Shown here: positions 1,669 through 13,554 of the stretch, one piece after another
How positions within the stretch are numbered: the stretch's first letter is position 1
Layout: each line of letters starts with the position of its first letter
Assembly: GCA_028700905.1 (NCBI GenBank)
Contig: JAQVRT010000014.1
Location: 1 to 14,441 of the forward strand
Reading direction: 5' to 3'
Length of the DNA: 14,441 nt
DNA from: Candidatus Iainarchaeum sp.
GTDB lineage: Archaea; Iainarchaeota; Iainarchaeia; Iainarchaeales; CSSED10-239
Notes under the pieces: generated by a model
Database searches by the model: none
Told to the model about the DNA's origin: nothing
What the model saw: only the letters and a program-made list of their open reading frames with translations
Program-made: the position numbers and the translations under genes

Positions 1669-1676
1669 GCAAAAAG

Positions 1677-2291
1677 TCATTTTTTAATATACGGACGTCT
1701 TGGTTTCTTTTGGGACTTATCCAAAATTTTATTTTTTGATTTGGATTTAAGAAAATTAATTATTTGTTTAATTAAAACAGACTTAACACCTTTTTCTGTA
1801 GCGTTTAATAATTCTAATTTTGAGTTAGAATTATTTTTAATTATTAAATTAGCATACTTTTTAACTTCATCTACTCCCATTATTTTTGATCTAAAAAAAT
1901 CACTTTTTGCGACATTGTTAATAGCTTCTTTTTTAGATTTATAATTAGATCTTAATTTTATTCGGTTTATTCTATATGTTTTATTAGAGTGGGTATAAAT
2001 TATATGAAAATCAGAAATAAACTTTTTGAGAAAAAAAATTTCATCTTTACTTAAAATACCTTCAATTATAATATTTTTGCTAACCTTTAATTCATTTATA
2101 ATATAAGGCATGGTTAATTCTAACACTTTTGTTTTTCGTTCAGCATAATAAACACTAGATTTATTTTTATGTTCAGGAATAGAATTTAATACACCCCTTA
2201 TTTCTATTAATTTAAATCCATTATCCATTAAATAATTGCCAACTATAGTCTTTCCAACCCCATTCTTACCAACAATTACAAATACAGTCAT
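1677..2291 (-). CDS. P-loop NTPase, nucleoside/nucleotide-kinase-like, with a basic C-terminal tail
   Basis: A Walker A motif sits at the extreme N-terminus (VIVGKNGVGKT). The size of about 200 aa and the layout are typical of small NMP-kinase or dephospho-CoA-kinase-like proteins. The ATG overlaps the upstream stop as ATGA. The substrate cannot be inferred. Confidence 0.5.
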   Translation of the reverse strand: MTVFVIVGKNGVGKTIVGNYLMDNGFKLIEIRGVLNSIPEHKNKSSVYYAERKTKVLELTMPYIINELKVSKNIIIEGILSKDEIFFLKKFISDFHIIYTHSNKTYRINRIKLRSNYKSKKEAINNVAKSDFFRSKIMGVDEVKKYANLIIKNNSNSKLELLNATEKGVKSVLIKQIINFLKSKSKNKILDKSQKKPRRPYIKK

Positions 2292-2782
2292 AATAATCTA
2301 TTTAATATATTTAACAACAATAAAATTCTAATCATAAATGAGCCATCACCACTAATATTTAGAGTGAGTTGCTCATCAAAATAATTTTTTAAAATTAAGT
2401 TTAATCTGGCTGCCAAATTATTTAAAAATAATTGCTCATCAAAATTTGCCTTAGAATTAGATATATTTTTTTGAAATTTATTTATAGAACATAGTGAAAA
2501 TAAATAATATTGAATTTGCCTCAAAACCTGATAAATATCTTTTTTTGAATTACAAACAAAAAAAAGATTATTTTTTAAAAAAATATAATTAATAATAAAC
2601 AAATCATGAGGGTCTAAAAAAATTAGTTTAATATCCTCGATAGAAAAATTATTTTTATCTAACACACTATTAATTTCGGCGACATTAATTGGATTTACAT
2701 TTAAAAAAACAATAAATTGTTGACCCTCATAATAAAATTGGTGCCAAGAAAGTGAGCAAAAATTATTTTTTATAATGACCAC
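2288..2782 (-). CDS. Hypothetical protein (orphan ORF inside the operon, GTG start)
   Basis: A 164-codon open frame with no ATG start. The start is GTG at 2782..2780, inside a GGTGGTC string. Its stop overlaps the next start as ATGA, which supports real translation. It has an internal repeat, NFDEQLFLNNL / YFDEQLTLNI. I recognise no domain. Confidence 0.35.
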   Translation of the reverse strand: MVIIKNNFCSLSWHQFYYEGQQFIVFLNVNPINVAEINSVLDKNNFSIEDIKLIFLDPHDLFIINYIFLKNNLFFVCNSKKDIYQVLRQIQYYLFSLCSINKFQKNISNSKANFDEQLFLNNLAARLNLILKNYFDEQLTLNISGDGSFMIRILLLLNILNRLL

Positions 2783-3632
2783 CTTTTTTTTTAAATGTAA
2801 TAAAATAGTTTTTAGAATAATAAATCTTTTTTTTTAAACCTGGTTTTGTAGAAGGAATGTCTTTCCAATAATTAAAACCAAACCATTTTAATAAAAACAA
2901 ATAATAAACATAAATTTTTGCAATTAAATCTAAAAAATAATTATATATTTTAATCAATCTAATTTTAAATGGAAATCCACTAATTAAATAACGCCCTAAT
3001 AATGTCCTCGCATGCTGATTAACCCGATCTTTAAAAGTACTTGGTAAAAAATAAAAATAATATGCAAAAAAACAAGGAATAAAATCAAATTTATACTTAG
3101 AATAAATCCAACGATCTTCATTAATTTTTGAAATATTTTTAAAAATTATTTTATTAAAAAAAACAGATTTAAACAAGATAAATGCGCCATGAGGTTTTAT
3201 TTTAAAAACAGTGGATTCAAACTCTATTTTTAATATATTTTGTTTTTCTAAAAGAGAAGGATGCTTAGAAATATAAGTTATGGGCAAGGCGCTTGCAGAA
3301 GTGTAATTATAATTAGAATTATTTAAAGTAGCCACTAAATTATAAATACATTTATCTGATAGAAAAAGATCAGAATCAGAAAACAAATAAAATTTATAAC
3401 GCAAATTTAATGACTGAACATATTTAAAAACATATAATTTTCCAATATCACAACTAACAAAATTATGCACAATTACACCTTTAAATGAATTGCAATCGAT
3501 AGGCTTATTAGAATGAATTATAATATGTATATTAAACAACACACCTTTTTGTTTATTTAATTCTGAAACAATATGAGGAATATACTTTAAATCAGATTCT
3601 CTTACACAAACAAAAACACCTAAATTAACCAT
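2763..3632 (-). CDS. Putative GT-A (family 2-like) glycosyltransferase
   Basis: An N-terminal beta-strand start (LGVFVCVRES) is followed by a DxD-like FLFSDSDLFL and a later NEDRW (ED motif), in the order expected for GT2 enzymes. The sequence is very divergent and low in complexity. Confidence 0.45.
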   Translation of the reverse strand: MVNLGVFVCVRESDLKYIPHIVSELNKQKGVLFNIHIIIHSNKPIDCNSFKGVIVHNFVSCDIGKLYVFKYVQSLNLRYKFYLFSDSDLFLSDKCIYNLVATLNNSNYNYTSASALPITYISKHPSLLEKQNILKIEFESTVFKIKPHGAFILFKSVFFNKIIFKNISKINEDRWIYSKYKFDFIPCFFAYYFYFLPSTFKDRVNQHARTLLGRYLISGFPFKIRLIKIYNYFLDLIAKIYVYYLFLLKWFGFNYWKDIPSTKPGLKKKIYYSKNYFITFKKKGGHYKK

Positions 3633-4632
3633 TATTAATCACATTTAAAAAAAAAGCAATATTTTTACTTAAATCAAACTTAGTCCTTGATAGCAAATAA
3701 ACTTTTAAAGACTTTCTTTGTATATCTGCAAAATCTAAAAAAGGTAATTCATTAGGAAAAATAATATTACTCTCAAATAAATCAATTGCAACAAAATTAG
3801 AGGGCAAAACCACTGGAACACAACCATAAAATCCGCCTTCTACCAATGAATTAGAAAAAGTTTCTAAATAGCCTAATGAAAAATTTAGAATAGCTTTTTT
3901 ATAATAAGGAATTATTCTTTCAAAAGATGGTGCTTGCTTATAAAACAATTTATTACTAATATTATGAGAATTAATTTTTTTATTATCTGTAAAATAATAA
4001 CATTTGTTTAAATATAATAAAAATTTATTTATTTTATTATTATTTTTATATTTTTTAAGTCTAGTCGCGAATATTCCATTCATTTGTTTTTTATCCCAAG
4101 CATAATTATCAGAAATTAATCCAATCGGAGTAATAATGTATTTAGCAGTAGTTTTAAAAAAACAATTAGCCAACATTTTATGAGAACTACAACTAACATG
4201 TAAAAAATCTATTTTTAAAAAGTTAATTTTTTTAAAAAAAATAGATTCTATTTTTAGTTTTTTTTGACAACTACGATCTAATTTAAATCTATAGTGTTCA
4301 ATATCAGGAATAGAAGCAATTAATTTAAAATTTTTATTTTTTAACAAAACAGGGTCTAATGATAAAATATGCCTATAATCTATAAAGTAAACAAAATCAA
4401 CAGGATTATTTTTCAGAAAGTTATTTAATTCTAAATGCAAATCACTCACTTCTGAAAAATTCATTATTAATTTATCATCATAATAAAAAGGGTTGTTAAA
4501 ATATAAATTAAAAACAATTACATCATAAGAACTATATTTATACAAGCCAACTAAAAATCTATATGCTCGATTTTGAACTCCCCCTACAGAATCTCTTGAA
4601 AGATCATAAACAACAATTACAAATTTACTCAT
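3625..4632 (-). CDS. Putative GT-B (family 4-like) glycosyltransferase
   Basis: The N-terminal FVIVVYDLSRDSVGGVQN resembles the GT4 GGv..h motif. The C-terminal LETFSNSLVEGGFYGCVPVV fits the GT4 E-x7-E signature followed by G.P.V. Confidence 0.55.
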   Translation of the reverse strand: MSKFVIVVYDLSRDSVGGVQNRAYRFLVGLYKYSSYDVIVFNLYFNNPFYYDDKLIMNFSEVSDLHLELNNFLKNNPVDFVYFIDYRHILSLDPVLLKNKNFKLIASIPDIEHYRFKLDRSCQKKLKIESIFFKKINFLKIDFLHVSCSSHKMLANCFFKTTAKYIITPIGLISDNYAWDKKQMNGIFATRLKKYKNNNKINKFLLYLNKCYYFTDNKKINSHNISNKLFYKQAPSFERIIPYYKKAILNFSLGYLETFSNSLVEGGFYGCVPVVLPSNFVAIDLFESNIIFPNELPFLDFADIQRKSLKVYLLSRTKFDLSKNIAFFLNVINNG

Positions 4633-5773
4633 AAACTATACCGTGTTTTTTAAGAAAAACATCTAGAACAAATTTTAATCCATTAGATGTAACATAGTTA
4701 GGTACCTCAGAAGGATTAAGCCAAAGAAAACTATTGTGTTCTTCTGAAAGAACTACTTGAGATGTATTACAGAAAACCGAAAAGAATTCTGTTTTAGTTT
4801 TTCTATAAACATAATTAGATTTCTTGAAATAATGATTAATTTCAAATAATTTATCTAAATCTATTTTGACATCAGTAATACCCACTTCCTCAGCAATTTC
4901 TCTTTTAATTGTTAATGAAGGATCATCAAATTCGCCCTTTTCAACACCTCCTTTGGGATATGCCCACCAACCTCCACCTCCAAAGGAATGTTCTATTACT
5001 AAGACTTTTTTATGTTCTAAATTATATAATATACCTCCTCTTGCAAGGCCAACTAATACATTTAATTGTTTAATATCTTCAAATAATTTTTCAAAATTAA
5101 ACTCATTATAAATACTGTATATTTTTGAAAAAATCGAAAGCAACGATTCAGTTGTATTTTTATCAACATTTTCTTTAACTTTAAAACTATTTTCTAATTT
5201 AAAATCAAAATTAACCCCGAATAAATTTAAAATTCGATAAAAATCATAAATTACATCTGACATCTTATATTTATCTGAAATAAAATAAGCATCATAAAAA
5301 TTTTGTTTTAAAACATAAAAAGTGGTTTGAAGTTCATAAAAAAAATCTTCTTTTGATTTATTTTTTAACATTTCGACAAACTTATATTCAATTCTTTCTC
5401 CAAAAATACAAAAACTATTTATGGTTAAATCAAATAAATAAGGTACAAACAAATCTTCAGAAATGATTTTTGAACTTAACTCATCTAAATTATGTATTCT
5501 AAAAACCATAGGAATATCATATTTTTGCCTAATAGTTGAATTTAATTCATTAATTAAAAGTAAATTTTCATTAGATATCTTTTCTTTATTCACAAAAAAC
5601 ATTACATCTAAATCACTTAAACCAGGTATAATTTCATCTCTCGCAAAAGAACCATAAATATAAACCGAATGAATGAAATCAATGTTTTTAGAAGTTAACA
5701 AGTCCTGAAGATCTTTAACCATATAATAATAATTACTAATATCTTTATTTAAAATTGTTTTCAAAAAAATCAC
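4625..5773 (-). CDS. Fusion protein: Pol-beta-superfamily nucleotidyltransferase (AadA/ANT-like N-terminus) plus C-terminal Nudix hydrolase
   Basis: VYIYGSFARDEIIPGLSDLDVMFFV is the GS...(S)DxD minimal nucleotidyltransferase motif, with spacing like aminoglycoside adenylyltransferases. The C-terminal GGVEKGEFDDPSLTIKREIAEEVGI is a Nudix box (G-x5-E ... REUxEExGU) with a slightly long spacer. The start is uncertain: the track start at 5773 is GTG, an in-frame TTG at 5764 sits 6 nt after GGTGA, and an in-frame ATG lies at 5722. Confidence 0.7.
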   Translation of the reverse strand: MIFLKTILNKDISNYYYMVKDLQDLLTSKNIDFIHSVYIYGSFARDEIIPGLSDLDVMFFVNKEKISNENLLLINELNSTIRQKYDIPMVFRIHNLDELSSKIISEDLFVPYLFDLTINSFCIFGERIEYKFVEMLKNKSKEDFFYELQTTFYVLKQNFYDAYFISDKYKMSDVIYDFYRILNLFGVNFDFKLENSFKVKENVDKNTTESLLSIFSKIYSIYNEFNFEKLFEDIKQLNVLVGLARGGILYNLEHKKVLVIEHSFGGGGWWAYPKGGVEKGEFDDPSLTIKREIAEEVGITDVKIDLDKLFEINHYFKKSNYVYRKTKTEFFSVFCNTSQVVLSEEHNSFLWLNPSEVPNYVTSNGLKFVLDVFLKKHGIVYE

Positions 5774-6602
5774 CTTTATTTATTTTTTTATTCAAGTATA
5801 AATAGAATTGATCAAAAGTGTTAAACATAACAGATGATGATGCAATTTTATTTGCAAATTTCAAAGATTTTTTAAGAGAAGCTTTTTTTAGATAATATCC
5901 AACAAAAGAATATAAAAAAACATCTCCGGCTCCAACAGATGACTTTTCAATCACATCATAACCCGAATCAGAAAAAAATAAAACATTATTTTTTAAAATG
6001 TCAGCACCATTGCAACCTTTTGTTAATAAGATATAATCCATATTTTCTAAAATATTTTTATCTAAACCAAAATATTCTTTATCAGATAATTTAAAAAACA
6101 CTTTTACAAAATATTTTTTAGACAGAGCAATAATTTGTTTTAATAATAGTAATTCTTGTTTTTTAAAACCACCATCATCATTATTAAAAAGATCTAAAAA
6201 AATAAACTTAGGTTTTTGAGAAAATATTTTTTTAAAAAATAAAATATTAAATTCATTTATTATTGGAGATACAATAATTGTTGCATTAGTTAAATTTAAA
6301 TTTAGATTAGAGCTAATTCTAAATGGTTTTGAATTTAATTTTACAACACGATTATTTTTAAATTGTTTTAAATTAAAACAAACTGTTTCTGGAACATAAT
6401 TAGGAATAATGTGCTTTAATAAAATTATATTTTCATAAAAGTCTTTTTTAGATATATTTGAAATATTAATAAAATTTAAATTGAAATTATTGCTAAGTAG
6501 ATGCAATATTGAACCGCCATAATTTGGAGGCCCTCCTAAAAAAACATTGTTATTTATCAAATCAATAGAAACACTAGAAAATGAAAAAATATTATTTTTC
6601 AT
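5745..6602 (-). CDS. PfkB/ribokinase-family carbohydrate kinase
   Basis: The N-terminal LGGPPNYGGS (GG..N motif) and the C-terminal SSVGAGDVFLYSF (GAGD anion-hole motif) appear in the canonical order. The length of 285 aa fits the family. The ATG at 6602 overlaps the upstream gene by 11 nt. Confidence 0.75.
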   Translation of the reverse strand: MKNNIFSFSSVSIDLINNNVFLGGPPNYGGSILHLLSNNFNLNFINISNISKKDFYENIILLKHIIPNYVPETVCFNLKQFKNNRVVKLNSKPFRISSNLNLNLTNATIIVSPIINEFNILFFKKIFSQKPKFIFLDLFNNDDGGFKKQELLLLKQIIALSKKYFVKVFFKLSDKEYFGLDKNILENMDYILLTKGCNGADILKNNVLFFSDSGYDVIEKSSVGAGDVFLYSFVGYYLKKASLKKSLKFANKIASSSVMFNTFDQFYLYLNKKINKGDFFENNFK

Positions 6603-7659
6603 AAATCCACTTTTTCAATTTTTTAAAAACAAAATCATCTGTATATTGCTCATTATTTGTTTTAAAACCGTAATTATTAATAATAGGCACAGTCCCTACT
6701 AAATTACGATCTTTTGCAATTTTTGCTAATCTAATTATATCTATAATAACGCCAGCACTATTAGGAGAATCAGTAACAGATAATTTTAATTCAATATCAA
6801 TTGGCTGCCCACCAAAACCCAATCCACGTAAATTGATATAGGCAATTTTATTATCGTTTAAATAATGAATATATTCTGCAGGGCCAGCATATAAGTTATT
6901 TAATTTATAATCATATTGACTGTTTACACTATTAATTTTACTTTCCCATTTTAATTTTAATCTTTCTTTATTCATCATATTCAGAAAGTCTGTATTTCCA
7001 CCAATATTCAATTGATAAGTGTTTTTTAATAAACACCCACGTTCTAAGAACAAATTAACTAATACTCGATGAATTATGGTTGCGCCTATTTGAGATTTTA
7101 CATCATCTCCAAAAACCAATAATTTTGCAGACTTAAATTTATCTATCCATTTTTTATCAGATGCAATAAAAACAGGCATCGCATTTATAAAACCAACATT
7201 TGCTTTAATAGCAGCATCAGCATAGAACTTAACTGCATCAGACGATCCTACGGGCAAGTAACAAATAACAAAATCTGGCTTAGTTTTTTTAAAAAGATTA
7301 ATAATATCTACAGGTTCTTTTGTTGAAGGAATTACTTTTTTATCTAAAGAATTATCAATTACATGACCTGATAAGCCATCTAATATAGGCCCCATTTGAA
7401 CAATTACTTTTTCTTTTATATCTTTACAAAAAATAGTAGTACAATTAGGCCTAGAAAATATAGCTTTAGATATTGGTTTTCCGACTTTTCTTTGATCAAC
7501 ATCAATTGCACATACAACATCTATATCTTTAATAGAATAACCTTTTAAATTTGGGTGTAATAAACCTATAAAATCCTTTTTTAAATAATAATTAAGGCCC
7601 TGTACTAAACTACTTGCGCAATTACCTACACCTATAATACCTATTTTTATTTTAGACAT
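6592..7659 (-). CDS. ino1: Inositol-3-phosphate (myo-inositol-1-phosphate) synthase, short prokaryotic type
   Basis: IGIIGVGNCASSLVQGLNYY is the characteristic N-terminal Rossmann motif of bacterial and archaeal MIPS. FGDDVKSQIGATIIHRVL and LNIGGNTDFLNM match the conserved catalytic-core motifs. The length is 355 aa. Confidence 0.9.
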   Translation of the reverse strand: MSKIKIGIIGVGNCASSLVQGLNYYLKKDFIGLLHPNLKGYSIKDIDVVCAIDVDQRKVGKPISKAIFSRPNCTTIFCKDIKEKVIVQMGPILDGLSGHVIDNSLDKKVIPSTKEPVDIINLFKKTKPDFVICYLPVGSSDAVKFYADAAIKANVGFINAMPVFIASDKKWIDKFKSAKLLVFGDDVKSQIGATIIHRVLVNLFLERGCLLKNTYQLNIGGNTDFLNMMNKERLKLKWESKINSVNSQYDYKLNNLYAGPAEYIHYLNDNKIAYINLRGLGFGGQPIDIELKLSVTDSPNSAGVIIDIIRLAKIAKDRNLVGTVPIINNYGFKTNNEQYTDDFVFKKLKKWIYEK

Positions 7660-7684
7660 AATATTAAATTATTATATAAAAATA

Positions 7685-7698
7685 TTTATAAAACTATT
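7685..7698 (-). promoter_or_regulatory. BRE/TATA-like promoter of the inositol operon (AATAGTTTTATAAA on the minus strand)
   Basis: The TATA box lies 26-33 nt upstream of the ino1 ATG at 7659, which implies a leaderless or near-leaderless transcript. The motif is shared with 1656-1668 and 10486-10499. Confidence 0.5.
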
Positions 7699-9069: not shown

Positions 9070-9338
9070 ACATTGTCATGATGATCTACTCTTTCAAAAA
9101 GAATAAATTTTTCTTTTTTAAAAACTTTAAAAATAATTACAAAACTTTTTAAGACATGTACTCTTTTATATTCTTTTAAATCATATCTTAAATTTTTATA
9201 AAAATCAATAGTAATTTCATCTATAGAAATAATTTCATTTATTTTTTTAAAAACAGATTCATAAAGTAACTTGTCTTTCTTATAAATTATAGAAAGGTTA
9301 TTTTCAAATAAATTACTAAAAGAATAATTAAAAGACAT
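9060..9338 (-). CDS. relE: RelE/ParE-superfamily toxin (mRNA interferase-like)
   Basis: The protein is 92 aa. The C-terminal part YKRVHVLKSFVIIFKVFKKEKFILFERVDHHDNVYK follows the RelE pattern yR.R.g.yRiiy.v......i..v.hR..vY. It lies immediately downstream of a small partner ORF, with the partner's stop and this start adjacent. Confidence 0.7.
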   Translation of the reverse strand: MSFNYSFSNLFENNLSIIYKKDKLLYESVFKKINEIISIDEITIDFYKNLRYDLKEYKRVHVLKSFVIIFKVFKKEKFILFERVDHHDNVYK

Positions 9339-9602
9339 TTATTTTTCCTCTATAGATTTTCTAAGTTCAGAAATAGTTTTAGATTTAAAACCTTTTTTTT
9401 TAATATGATAATCACAAGATTTAATTACATCTTTTAAAACTTCTTCTTTTATTTCTCTATCAATAAATTCATCTCCAAACAATTCAACAAATTTATTTAA
9501 AGCATCTCCTTTATCACGTAATCCATATTTTTCTTTAATAACACCTAAAACTCTATTAGTATAAGGATTAATTTTTATATTTAAACCCACATATTTATCC
9601 AT
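9339..9602 (-). CDS. Putative cognate antitoxin (small DNA-binding-type protein)
   Basis: The protein is 87 aa and sits directly upstream of the RelE-like gene with no gap. INPYTNRVLGVIKEKYGLRDKGDALNKFV resembles a motif (YTNRvL..iK.KYGL.dK..Ain) that I recall from small archaeal proteins found next to RelE-like genes. An AGGTGA RBS lies 7 nt upstream of the ATG. Confidence 0.6.
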   Translation of the reverse strand: MDKYVGLNIKINPYTNRVLGVIKEKYGLRDKGDALNKFVELFGDEFIDREIKEEVLKDVIKSCDYHIKKKGFKSKTISELRKSIEEK

Positions 9603-9728
9603 ATAATTTCACCTAATATAATATAAGTTAAACTAATATAAAAAGATATCTAAATTAGAAATATTTTAAAAAAAATAGAAAAGAAAGATTAAATAATATT
9701 TAACCTTTTTTATATTAATAGACAAAAA

Positions 9729-10400
9729 TTATTTTAATTTTTTAGATAAAATTTCATTTTTCTTCTTTAAATCATAAATCATTCCAGCATAACCATGAAC
9801 CATATCAACAATTGTTTGAAGAGAATTTTGAAGATCAGAAATCCCAACATTTAATTTTTCTGGTTTTAAAACATCAATTGCAGTTACACCATAATAATAA
9901 ATTAATCTAAATAAATTAAATAAATCAGCACAAGAAACTTCTGCAGAAATATATGTTGAAAAAAGATCATCATGAACAACTATATCTGCTAAAGTAGAAT
10001 CATACACAAAATATGCAGAATCTTCTTTAAGAGATTTTAATATTTTTTCCATAGCTTCTCTTAAAACTGTTTTATCATCAGATTTAGATTCAATAATTAT
10101 TGAAACTCTAATTGAATTTTTATCATTTTCTGATAATTCCTTTCTTCTTTCTAAAGTTTTTTTAATTTCATCAGATAAATGATACTTAACAGGAAAACCT
10201 TCTTTTTTAATTAATTTTAAAGAAAGCATATTTTTTAAAACAGTTAAAATTTCTTCATAACTTGCATTTGAAAACTCTTTTTTTAAATCATCATCTGTCT
10301 TTGGAGATTTATGAAGAGATTTTGCAATTAAGTCTCTTAAGTTTTTTAAATCATTTTCTTTTTTTATTTCTTGTTCTTTAAAGGATATTTCTTCAGCCAT
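9729..10400 (-). CDS. Hypothetical protein with a probable N-terminal winged-helix domain and a C-terminal coiled-coil
   Basis: SYEEILTVLKNMLSLKLIKKEGFPVKYHLSDE looks like a wHTH recognition helix plus wing. The central alpha/beta region and the final heptad-like tail are unassigned. A TATA-like ATATATATAAT lies about 30 nt upstream of the ATG. Confidence 0.4.
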   Translation of the reverse strand: MAEEISFKEQEIKKENDLKNLRDLIAKSLHKSPKTDDDLKKEFSNASYEEILTVLKNMLSLKLIKKEGFPVKYHLSDEIKKTLERRKELSENDKNSIRVSIIIESKSDDKTVLREAMEKILKSLKEDSAYFVYDSTLADIVVHDDLFSTYISAEVSCADLFNLFRLIYYYGVTAIDVLKPEKLNVGISDLQNSLQTIVDMVHGYAGMIYDLKKKNEILSKKLK

Positions 10401-10485
10401 AATTAATCATTTTTAATAAGTATATATATAATATAGAATACAAAATACTTAAAAATAGAAGGTAAAAATATATTTTGAGAAAAAC

Positions 10486-10499
10486 AATAGGTTTATAAA
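10486..10499 (+). promoter_or_regulatory. BRE/TATA-like promoter (AATAGGTTTATAAA) positioned for a transcript starting at about 10523
   Basis: The TATA octamer is at 10492-10499. Its centre plus 27 nt falls at 10522-10523, which is the first G of the closing stem of the downstream element. The AATAG-n-TTTATAAA arrangement matches the two minus-strand promoters at 1656 and 7685, but here it is on the plus strand. Confidence 0.5.
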
Positions 10500-10522
10500 C
10501 CTTATGTATATTAATATTATTT

Positions 10523-10648
10523 GGTGTGTAGACAAAAGTTAAAAGGTTTGCATCTTTTTTAACTAGTATGCTTTAAGCTAGACTTTATATTAAAGTTAAG
10601 GATTAGTTGCTTAGGTAAATTTTTCTTAATTTTAATCGTTTACACACC
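10523..10648 (+). ncRNA. Candidate structured non-coding RNA of unknown class (alternative reading: MITE-like element)
   Basis: GGTGTGTAGAC (10523-10533) pairs with GTTTACACACC (10638-10648), giving 11 bp with one G-U. Internal helices are AGTTAAAA/TTTTAACT (10537-44 / 10557-64) and ATTAAAGTTAAG/CTTAATTTTAAT (10589-600 / 10625-36, one G-U). Both wobble pairs are allowed only on the plus strand. A promoter sits at -27, and TTTTT follows 2 nt after the stem, with T8 at 10667-10674. No ORF is present. Confidence 0.5.
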
Positions 10649-10768
10649 ATTTTTAATTTAAACTATTTTTTTTAAAATTAATAATAATATTTTCATAAAT
10701 CTATAAAACAAAAAGTATTTATTTAATAAGAAATATAAAATATAAATAAACACAAATAAAGATTATTA

Positions 10769-11914: not shown

Positions 11915-12397
11915 TTAATTAGCCCAAGTAAACTTATAACTTTTTGAAGTTACAATTTGGTTATTTTTAATAGAATCAATATATAAATAATATGAGTCTC
12001 CACATTTATTATCATATCCTTCTAAAATAACATATCCTTTAACACCTTTAGTCATTTTAGGATCAAGATATGCACCAGGAAAACCAACATTATCACTAGA
12101 AGTAACTTTTAATTCCATTAGATTTGCAGAAACATCTTTTAGATATACCTTATATCTTTGATCTTCTCCTTTAGGCATCCAATCAAAAGTAAAATATGCT
12201 TTATCACCTGCAACACAATCTTGATATTGTGCATTTACATTTATAATATCAGCAGGAAGAGGAGCACTATTACCTTGAGCAGTAATTTTAATTGCATCAC
12301 CAGTAGTATTTAATGTAGTGGTTAGAACAACACCTAAGATTAATCCTAAAAGTAAACCAAATAAACCATACACCATTATTTGTTTTTTATTTTTCAT
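11915..12397 (-). CDS. Small secreted or membrane-anchored protein of unknown function
   Basis: I place the start at the second ATG (12397..12395), which has GAGGT 8 nt upstream. The track start at 12412 would add MRFLK. The N-terminal MKNKKQIMVYGLFGLLLGLILGVVL is a signal anchor. The mature part is a beta-rich domain of about 125 aa with two Cys. Confidence 0.6.
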   Translation of the reverse strand: MKNKKQIMVYGLFGLLLGLILGVVLTTTLNTTGDAIKITAQGNSAPLPADIINVNAQYQDCVAGDKAYFTFDWMPKGEDQRYKVYLKDVSANLMELKVTSSDNVGFPGAYLDPKMTKGVKGYVILEGYDNKCGDSYYLYIDSIKNNQIVTSKSYKFTWAN

Positions 12398-12481
12398 TTT
12401 TAAAAACCTCATTTTTATTTTTATAAAATATAATTAATAAAAGATATTGTTATAGAAAACATTTATAAAATAAACTTTTTA
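12381..12481 (-). repeat. Copy A of a duplicated promoter/RBS/first-codons cassette
   Basis: It aligns with 13400-13500 at a constant offset of 1019 nt. By hand I count 6 mismatches in 101 nt, with a 58-nt identical core at 12390-12447. It contains two TATA-like boxes, the ATGAGGTTTTTAAAAATG start region and the Lys-rich first codons. Confidence 0.85.
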
Positions 12482-12495
12482 AAAAAAAAGAAAGA

Positions 12496-12518: not shown

Positions 12519-13416
12519 ATCTTATATTTTTAGAAAAATCTTCTACACTATCTTTTTTCAAAAAATCTTCTTTAGCCATAGATTCTTCTTTAGATAAATT
12601 AGATGAAGAAAATAATTTATTGTTATTATATTCAAATTGAACTACCCTTCGAGCTGAACTAGTGTGAAGTAATTCTACTAATTCAGGAGTACTTTTTTTA
12701 TAATCAGCATGAACAGACAAATAAGCAGTATAAGTTCCATTTTCAAGTTTATTAGGAAACAAACTATATAAATCTAAAGTATGCTCAAAAACACCTGCTT
12801 TTTGAGGGATGTCAATATAATTAGCAAAAAGAAATTCATTATTTGAATTATTAACACTTAAATATAATCTTAAAATAGGCATTGCCTCAGGGTACAACTC
12901 ACCCTTAAAAGTAATCTTATTTGTTAATGGATCTAAAGAAAACTCATAGTAATTAGCAACAACATATTCAGAATTATTTAAATTAAATGATCTATCGTAT
13001 TTAACCCCATTTTCCTTTTCATAGATGTATCTTACATACGGATTTTGTAAATTTTGCTGATTTGCATAAACAGCATTATGAGTACCCATAAATCTTTTGT
13101 CTCCATGTCTATATGTACGTGCGTTAGAATAAGAATGATATCCATTTACATTTGGATAAATAAAACCACTTATAAAACCATTGCTATTAGTATATGCATT
13201 AAATGAAGTACGGTATATATAATAACGTGAATTGTCATCTGAATAAAAAATAGTATCACTGGACAATGCAGCACTGAAGTTATTTTTTTCTGAAACAGTA
13301 GGTTTTATTGCAAAACCTTCTTTTGATAAACTTGGAAGTAAAAATATTACAGCCAACGATAATACAACTACAGCAATTAGTATATATACTGCAGTTAAAT
13401 TTTTTTTCTTTTTCAT
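12517..13416 (-). CDS. Secreted or membrane-anchored protein of unknown function (Tyr/Asn-rich)
   Basis: I place the start at the second ATG (13416..13414), preceded by the same GAGGT RBS. The track start is 13431. The N-terminus is MKKKKNLTAVYILIAVVVLSLAVIFLL. I recognise no domain in the remainder. Confidence 0.6.
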   Translation of the reverse strand: MKKKKNLTAVYILIAVVVLSLAVIFLLPSLSKEGFAIKPTVSEKNNFSAALSSDTIFYSDDNSRYYIYRTSFNAYTNSNGFISGFIYPNVNGYHSYSNARTYRHGDKRFMGTHNAVYANQQNLQNPYVRYIYEKENGVKYDRSFNLNNSEYVVANYYEFSLDPLTNKITFKGELYPEAMPILRLYLSVNNSNNEFLFANYIDIPQKAGVFEHTLDLYSLFPNKLENGTYTAYLSVHADYKKSTPELVELLHTSSARRVVQFEYNNNKLFSSSNLSKEESMAKEDFLKKDSVEDFSKNIR

Positions 13417-13500
13417 TTTTAAAAACCTCATTTTTATTTTTATAAAATATAATTAATAAAAGATATAGTTATAGAAAGCATTTATAAAATTAACTTATTA
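13400..13500 (-). repeat. Copy B of the duplicated promoter/RBS/first-codons cassette
   Basis: See copy A. The two copies are in direct orientation, 1019 nt apart. Confidence 0.85.
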
Positions 13501-13554
13501 GAAAAATAATTTTAAAGAAAACAAATAAAAACATAAACTTCTTTAATATTAAAT

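Follow-up and report, generated by a model that had tools for sequence, protein, structure and literature searches.

The 368-bp noncoding gap at 10401-10768 of the window (that is, the whole stretch of 14,441 nt which was analyzed) contains a 126-nt element with about an even chance of being a young, lineage-restricted and independently transcribed gene for a structured small RNA (sRNA) of a species-level Forterrea clade. As in independent archaeal sRNA genes in general, a promoter is located at the proper distance upstream and an oligo-T terminator follows. An earlier note on this DNA had left the choice between a structured RNA and a miniature inverted-repeat element (MITE). The former fits the promoter, the plus-strand fold, the invariant T5 tract and the strain changes that spare base pairs, while the transcript itself is a prediction. 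The element could be assigned to none of the described RNA families.

Genomic Context and Anatomy of the Element

The DNA comes from a DPANN archaeon (Diapherotrites) that resembles Candidatus Forterrea multitransposorum. The G+C content of the window is ~22-25% (DNA of ~78% A+T). Among the proteins encoded are a DsbA-like protein, a myo-inositol-1-phosphate synthase and one whose signal peptide is of the archaeal class III (pilin-like) type. The element lies between two divergent genes. The left neighbor, which occupies 9729-10400 on the minus strand, is a member of the Pfam family PF27325 (MJ0538). The complete genome of Candidatus Forterrea multitransposorum (CP045477.1) encodes a protein with 98% identity to the product of this gene. 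To the right, an operon encodes a 96-aa membrane protein and a 265-aa protein. No credible small ORF overlaps the element.

The gap, both arms of the repeat, the promoter motif and the ATTT flanks were all found at the positions which the earlier note had given. The features of the locus are as follows:

10486-10499, plus strand: BRE/TATA-type archaeal promoter motif AATAGGTTTATAAA, recognized by recurrence of the motif AATAG(N)TTTATAAA
10523-10533, plus strand: 5′ strand of the closing helix, GGTGTGTAGAC, and predicted transcription start; invariant across strains
10537-10564, plus strand: arm 1, a 10-bp hairpin of A-U and G.U pairs with the 8-nt loop UUUGCAUC (MFE fold); invariant across strains
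10570-10578, plus strand: weak arm 2, the mini-hairpin GCU-UUA-AGC (fold); base of the arm not conserved
10589-10636, plus strand: arm 3, a 14-bp helix joined through a 4x4 internal loop to a 4-bp helix with a UUAG loop (MFE fold)
10638-10648, plus strand: 3′ strand of the closing helix, GTTTACACACC; invariant across strains
10650-10654, plus strand: T5 tract, likely termination site of the archaeal RNA polymerase; invariant across strains

The 11-bp closing helix, in which the two strands pair around 104 nt, was thus recovered as described, and it extends to 12 bp when T10522-A10649 is included. Read as an inverted repeat, the arms differ at a single position out of 11 (or out of 12 when the flanking T/A is included). 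Several details had to be corrected. Instead of inner helices of 8 and 12 bp, the MFE fold gives one of 10 bp, one of 14+4 bp and a 3-bp mini-hairpin; the closing stem has one G.U pair and not two; and the T5 tract begins after a gap of 1 nt from the stem and not 2 nt. A second oligo-T tract, T8, is located at 10666-10673.

Strength and Strand of the Fold

On the plus strand, a 128-nt segment folds with -37.7 kcal/mol (z = -5.53), and none of 200 dinucleotide shuffles was as good. The minus strand is unremarkable (z = -0.59). After GC correction, the element ranks first among 3,580 sliding 128-nt windows of both strands. The long arm 3 by itself shows z = -4.46 (again 0 of 200 shuffles as good), whereas arm 1 folded by itself gives z = -2.2 and the entire 104-nt interior only -1.9. 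G.U pairs occur in every helix, which makes the structure specific to the plus strand.

Chance could account for the closing inverted repeat when it is taken alone. Repeats of similar quality (11 nt, no more than one mismatch, at least five G/C, spacing of 20-200) are expected ~0.9 times per Markov-simulated window, and another one is present at 2603/2720, within a gene. The G+C content of the element is ~27%; typical stable RNAs of A+T-rich archaea have a far higher one, and this is a point against an sRNA gene.

The second-best GC-corrected fold of the window is found at 185-328 on the plus strand (-37.2 kcal/mol for 201-328), opposite in strand to a duplicated Peptidase_M6-family gene which runs off the window start. 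It has no match in Rfam.

The Promoter Motif and Its Change in the Type Strain

No other single piece of evidence is as strong as the promoter motif, which is far beyond chance: AATAG(N)TTTATAAA has three matches in the window against 0.09 expected. At the element, the TATA box ends 24 nt before G10523. For the second copy the distance is 26 nt, counted to a leaderless ATG at 7659, and the third is upstream of the pilin-like gene starting at 1604. The earlier note had pointed to the same arrangement at two protein-gene promoters. Both sites do exist, but they are duplicates of a single promoter, because they form the direct repeats that bound a 6-kb island lacking in other strains.

This island (1669-7679) consists of seven minus-strand genes, including the one for myo-inositol-1-phosphate synthase, and is missing in three strains (L001, L003 and L013). 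It is flanked by direct repeats of ~19 nt (1650-1668 and 7680-7698) of the promoter sequence AATAGTTT(T)ATAAATATTT; strains without the island have one promoter copy, directly before the pilin-like gene. At the element, the TATA core GGTTTATAAACC (10490-10501) is a perfect 12-bp palindrome, and the plus-strand orientation of the promoter comes only from the upstream AATAG, that is, the BRE-like part. A scan for sigma-70 promoters and intrinsic terminators, which uses bacterial-type models on an archaeal host, gave nothing above the shuffled expectation.

In the type strain the TATA box is mutated to AATAAATTTACACA, a degraded sequence also written TTTACACA. Clustered substitutions turned TTTATAAAC into TTTACACAC. 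In the type-strain lineage (L013 at 3900-3925 of the minus strand, L031, L032, L033 and L042), the TATA region GGTTTATAAAC reads AATTTACACAC. Through the four to five clustered substitutions, this region has come to match 9 nt of the 3′ arm of the element. Such a change resembles a templated or gene-conversion-type event more than a set of independent point mutations. The type-strain promoter is probably weakened as a result. The degraded TATA box counts against an important or indispensable function of the element, or at least against its constant expression.

Comparison with Known RNA Families

The exclusion of tRNA, 5S rRNA, C/D and H/ACA RNAs, which had been proposed from the sequence alone, was upheld by ARAGORN and Rfam. 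No family matched at the gathering threshold over the whole window (Rfam 15). Searches of 371 and 146 nt at E ≤ 10 returned only noise, namely a 20.6-bit CRISPR-DR40 match outside the element and a 17-bit snoR29 match on the minus strand (E = 5.2). ARAGORN detected no tRNA or tmRNA gene in the window, and Rfam no tRNA. The plus strand has neither C (RUGAUGA) nor D (CUGA) boxes of a C/D guide. An H/ACA guide is rejected as well: no usable architecture was found, and the ACA triplets sit within the closing helix.

The element resembles 5S rRNA in its length (~120-126 nt) and in a closing helix of ~10 bp that opens into a multi-branch junction. Unlike 5S rRNA, it has no 5S model match, even at E ≤ 10 in the 146-nt search, and lacks the loop C and loop E signatures. 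This identity is not credible also because rRNA is universal and the element is absent from close relatives. Y RNAs and other RNAs closed by a long stem between their 5′ and 3′ ends share with it the end-to-end helix around branched hairpins and the size of ~100-130 nt; in contrast to them, the element matches neither the Y_RNA nor the YrlA model of Rfam, and no bulged-helix Ro-binding motif was identified in it.

The Hgc RNAs of Methanocaldococcus and Pyrococcus are independently transcribed archaeal sRNAs that stand out as structured islands in A+T-rich genomes. The element is similar to them as a stand-alone, strongly structured intergenic unit of 100-200 nt, with a BRE/TATA motif ~24-27 nt upstream and an oligo-T terminator. 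It differs in that no Rfam family, Hgc families included, matches it, its G+C content (~27%) is barely above that of the genome, it is limited to one species-level clade and its expression is predicted.

Distribution and Variation within the Clade

The element is present in every strain of a clade with ~94-100% nucleotide identity. Relatives with 84%, 78% and ~50-60% identity in the MJ0538-family protein mostly keep the same divergent gene pair, but the element is missing from their intergenic regions, which measure only 100-230 nt. At the syntenic loci of ~20 more distant Diapherotrites, searched over ~4 kb to either side of the flanking gene per relative, neither nhmmer nor a covariance model detected a homologue. 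Two promoter-region motifs common to the clade, ATACAAAATAC and AAAAAGTATTTATTT, are ~35 nt apart in the 78% relative and ~270 nt apart here. By this spacing, the Forterrea lineage has gained ~235 nt, which comprise the promoter, the RNA and the terminators. In a MAFFT alignment of the intergenic regions with those of element-free relatives, the sequences were too A+T-rich and divergent to place the boundaries of the insertion.

In a relative with 78% protein identity, three tandem AAsTTAAAAG repeats, ~11-12 nt apart, are located in the intergenic region upstream of the MJ0538-family gene (L039, 340-400, minus strand). The 10-mer AAGTTAAAAG, which otherwise occurs once among 40 loci (L022), forms the 5′ strand of the Forterrea arm 1 as well. 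In an ENA contig (L009, 1394-1546), the 96-aa gene is joined to another upstream neighborhood with GatC-like and SMC_N genes, and homology to the window starts at 10697, 48 nt past the element. Either the strain is rearranged or the assembly is chimeric; the junction is not a precise excision of the element.

Three sequence variants of the element exist in the clade, and further strains drawn from the flanking-protein cluster added no new one. The numbers of variable columns per region are:

Upstream intergenic, 10401-10485: 4 of 85
TATA box to start, 10486-10522: 9 of 37
Element, 10523-10648: 5 of 126
Downstream intergenic, 10649-10768: 21 of 120

Four of the five changes within the element are at unpaired positions and the fifth turns a U-A pair into U.G. 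In arm 3 the strain changes fall in the internal loop, and the in-pair change is the U-A to U.G one. C10583A in L013 abolishes a 3-bp extension of arm 2 predicted for the window strain. Past ~10669 the DNA has indels and substitutions between strains; the T5 tract has none. Of the 42 pairs checked for covariation among the three distinct sequences, all are kept, with no compensatory change and one one-sided change. Three variants without a compensatory change are too few for evolution to confirm the structure. The pattern appears compatible with a constrained RNA structure, short of proof. In addition, the upstream stretch 10401-10485, which holds the promoter of the neighbor, is as conserved as the element, so that constraint on the element is not clearly special.

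These data bear on a different explanation, namely that the segment is neutral young DNA, recently gained or reshuffled, with a chance promoter and fold and with any transcript spurious or dispensable. Its confinement to a clade of ~94-100% identity and its absence from relatives of 50-84% identity in the flanking protein are in accordance with such an origin, as are the degraded promoter of the type strain, the closing repeat expected about once per window, and the lack of covariation. The intergenic regions of the clade are also fluid, and strains differ in indels, in the 6-kb island and in a small insertion of two genes. Nevertheless, the motif at the right distance, the best fold of the window, the strand asymmetry and the invariant T5 tract are hard to combine by chance, and the element varies less than its immediate flanks. 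On this evidence we hold a neutral origin to be unlikely.

Two small adjacent minus-strand genes (9071-9641; 92 and 87 aa) beside the MJ0538-family gene show a presence/absence polymorphism; they are missing from L001 and L013 and have no match in Pfam. Elsewhere in the window, a direct repeat of 112 nt (12376-12487 and 13395-13506, 92% identical) spans the promoters and first codons (MRFLKMK...) of two paralogous minus-strand genes.

The Element as a Possible MITE

Prokaryotic MITEs are exemplified by the SM elements of Sulfolobus and the Correia elements of Neisseria. Similarly to these, the element is small (~126 bp), noncoding, intergenic and found in one lineage only, and its arms GGTGTGTAGAC/GTTTACACACC qualify as imperfect terminal inverted repeats of 11 bp. 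An element or relic of this kind, whose arms would be recognized by a host transposase and whose ATTT flanks would be a target-site duplication, also agrees with a lineage-specific insertion relative to the syntenic relatives. The host species is described as having many transposons, some of them in only a part of the population (PMC5905446), and MITEs can be abundant in DPANN genomes (PMC11602168).

Multiple copies, which this origin would predict, were not found in the compared loci, viral contigs or JGI metagenome contigs. The two-arm pattern GGTGTGTARAC-N(90-120)-GTYTACACACC was searched across the collections with exact arms at 90-120 nt spacing only, the complete genome CP045477.1 lying outside the scan. 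It had no match in the IMG/VR viral contigs and seven in the JGI metagenome contigs. Four of the seven represent this locus again, flanks included, and one of these is on a 368-kb Forterrea-like contig; a 487-kb Forterrea-like JGI contig with the locus showed no second site. Contigs of this size hold about half a genome. The remaining three matches are unrelated to the element in interior and host, and we regard them as chance occurrences of a 22-base pattern: one (L034) is a giant palindrome in DNA of 40% G+C, and the other two (L036 and L037) are in phage- or plasmid-like context.

The 11-mer GGTGTGTARAC was found solely at the element among 30 loci compared, and a covariance model of the element located no further copy in 208 kb of compared sequence. 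Phage and plasmid records had no match to it in distant-mode BLAST, and no transposase gene is present in the window or the compared loci. As the scan of these contigs with the two-arm pattern found the element only at this locus, a multi-copy MITE is not supported.

The putative target-site duplication is also unreliable. ATTT is indeed present at 10519-10522 and 10649-10652, but the type strain has TATT/ATTT, so the duplication is not conserved, and a flank match carries little weight because the DNA is ~78% A+T. Moreover, the gained DNA of ~235 nt includes the promoter and exceeds the 126 nt bounded by the repeats. Finally, unlike prokaryotic MITEs, the element is single-copy where searched and has neither a known partner transposase nor a palindromic interior; its pairing relies on G.U, which suits RNA rather than DNA. 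A MITE or its relic is therefore quite improbable, and we rate it somewhat below the neutral origin.

The Element as a Leader of the Downstream Operon

The element and the 96-aa gene, which starts 120 nt downstream, share a strand, and two oligo-T tracts follow the structure. It could thus be a cis-acting 5′ leader or attenuator of the operon, where a ligand or a protein would decide between a stop at T5/T8 and read-through. An alternative pairing of 17 nt, in which the 3′ strand of arm 3 would bind 10672-10688, could serve such a switch, but it is A+T-rich and unremarkable. The 96-aa gene also has its own promoter, AAAAAGTATTTATTT at ~10709-10723, which is kept in relatives without the element, and no Rfam riboswitch or leader model matched the plus strand at E ≤ 10. 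A leader function consequently has very little probability.

Two further candidates were rejected. A replication origin or ORB pair does not agree with the lack of a nearby cdc6 gene, with an interior not A+T-richer than the genome, and with a GC skew that follows gene orientation. An operator for the neighboring wHTH (MJ0538-family) protein was discarded because that gene is conserved across the phylum and the repeat is not.

Predicted Transcript and Its Significance

If the element is an independent sRNA gene, the archaeal RNA polymerase would start at ~G10523, directed by the AATAG-TTTATAAA (BRE/TATA) promoter, and would terminate in the T5 tract at 10650-10654, releasing an RNA of ~128-132 nt. 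The 5′ and 3′ ends of this RNA would be locked together by the helix of 11-12 bp. The closing helix would open into a multi-branch junction with the 10-bp hairpin, the mini-hairpin and the long 14+4-bp hairpin. We infer that the RNA is made, that its paired ends would guard it against exonucleases, and that it would act in trans, in regulation or protein binding, and not in cis. A screen for RNA duplexes with the starts of the 17 genes of the window, by a crude method, was indistinguishable from shuffled controls (|z| ≤ 2).

A more specific history would be that of an RNA gene born de novo in a minimal-genome DPANN symbiont, restricted to the species and still at an early stage, which would be expressed where the TATA box is of the consensus form and silenced in the type strain by the apparently templated copy of the 3′ arm. 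This scenario is about as unlikely as the neutral origin. If true, it would offer a natural on/off polymorphism for studying the birth and loss of new noncoding RNA genes.

If the segment is neutral DNA, it would illustrate how easily look-alikes of promoters, hairpins and terminators assemble in intergenic DNA of ~78% A+T. Either outcome has no bearing on a major open question. To our knowledge, almost no noncoding RNAs have been characterized in DPANN archaea, with their tiny genomes, beyond rRNA, tRNA and other universal RNAs. A stand-alone structured RNA with a polymorphic promoter in one species would be a small but concrete addition to these, and a tractable case of recent RNA-gene birth.
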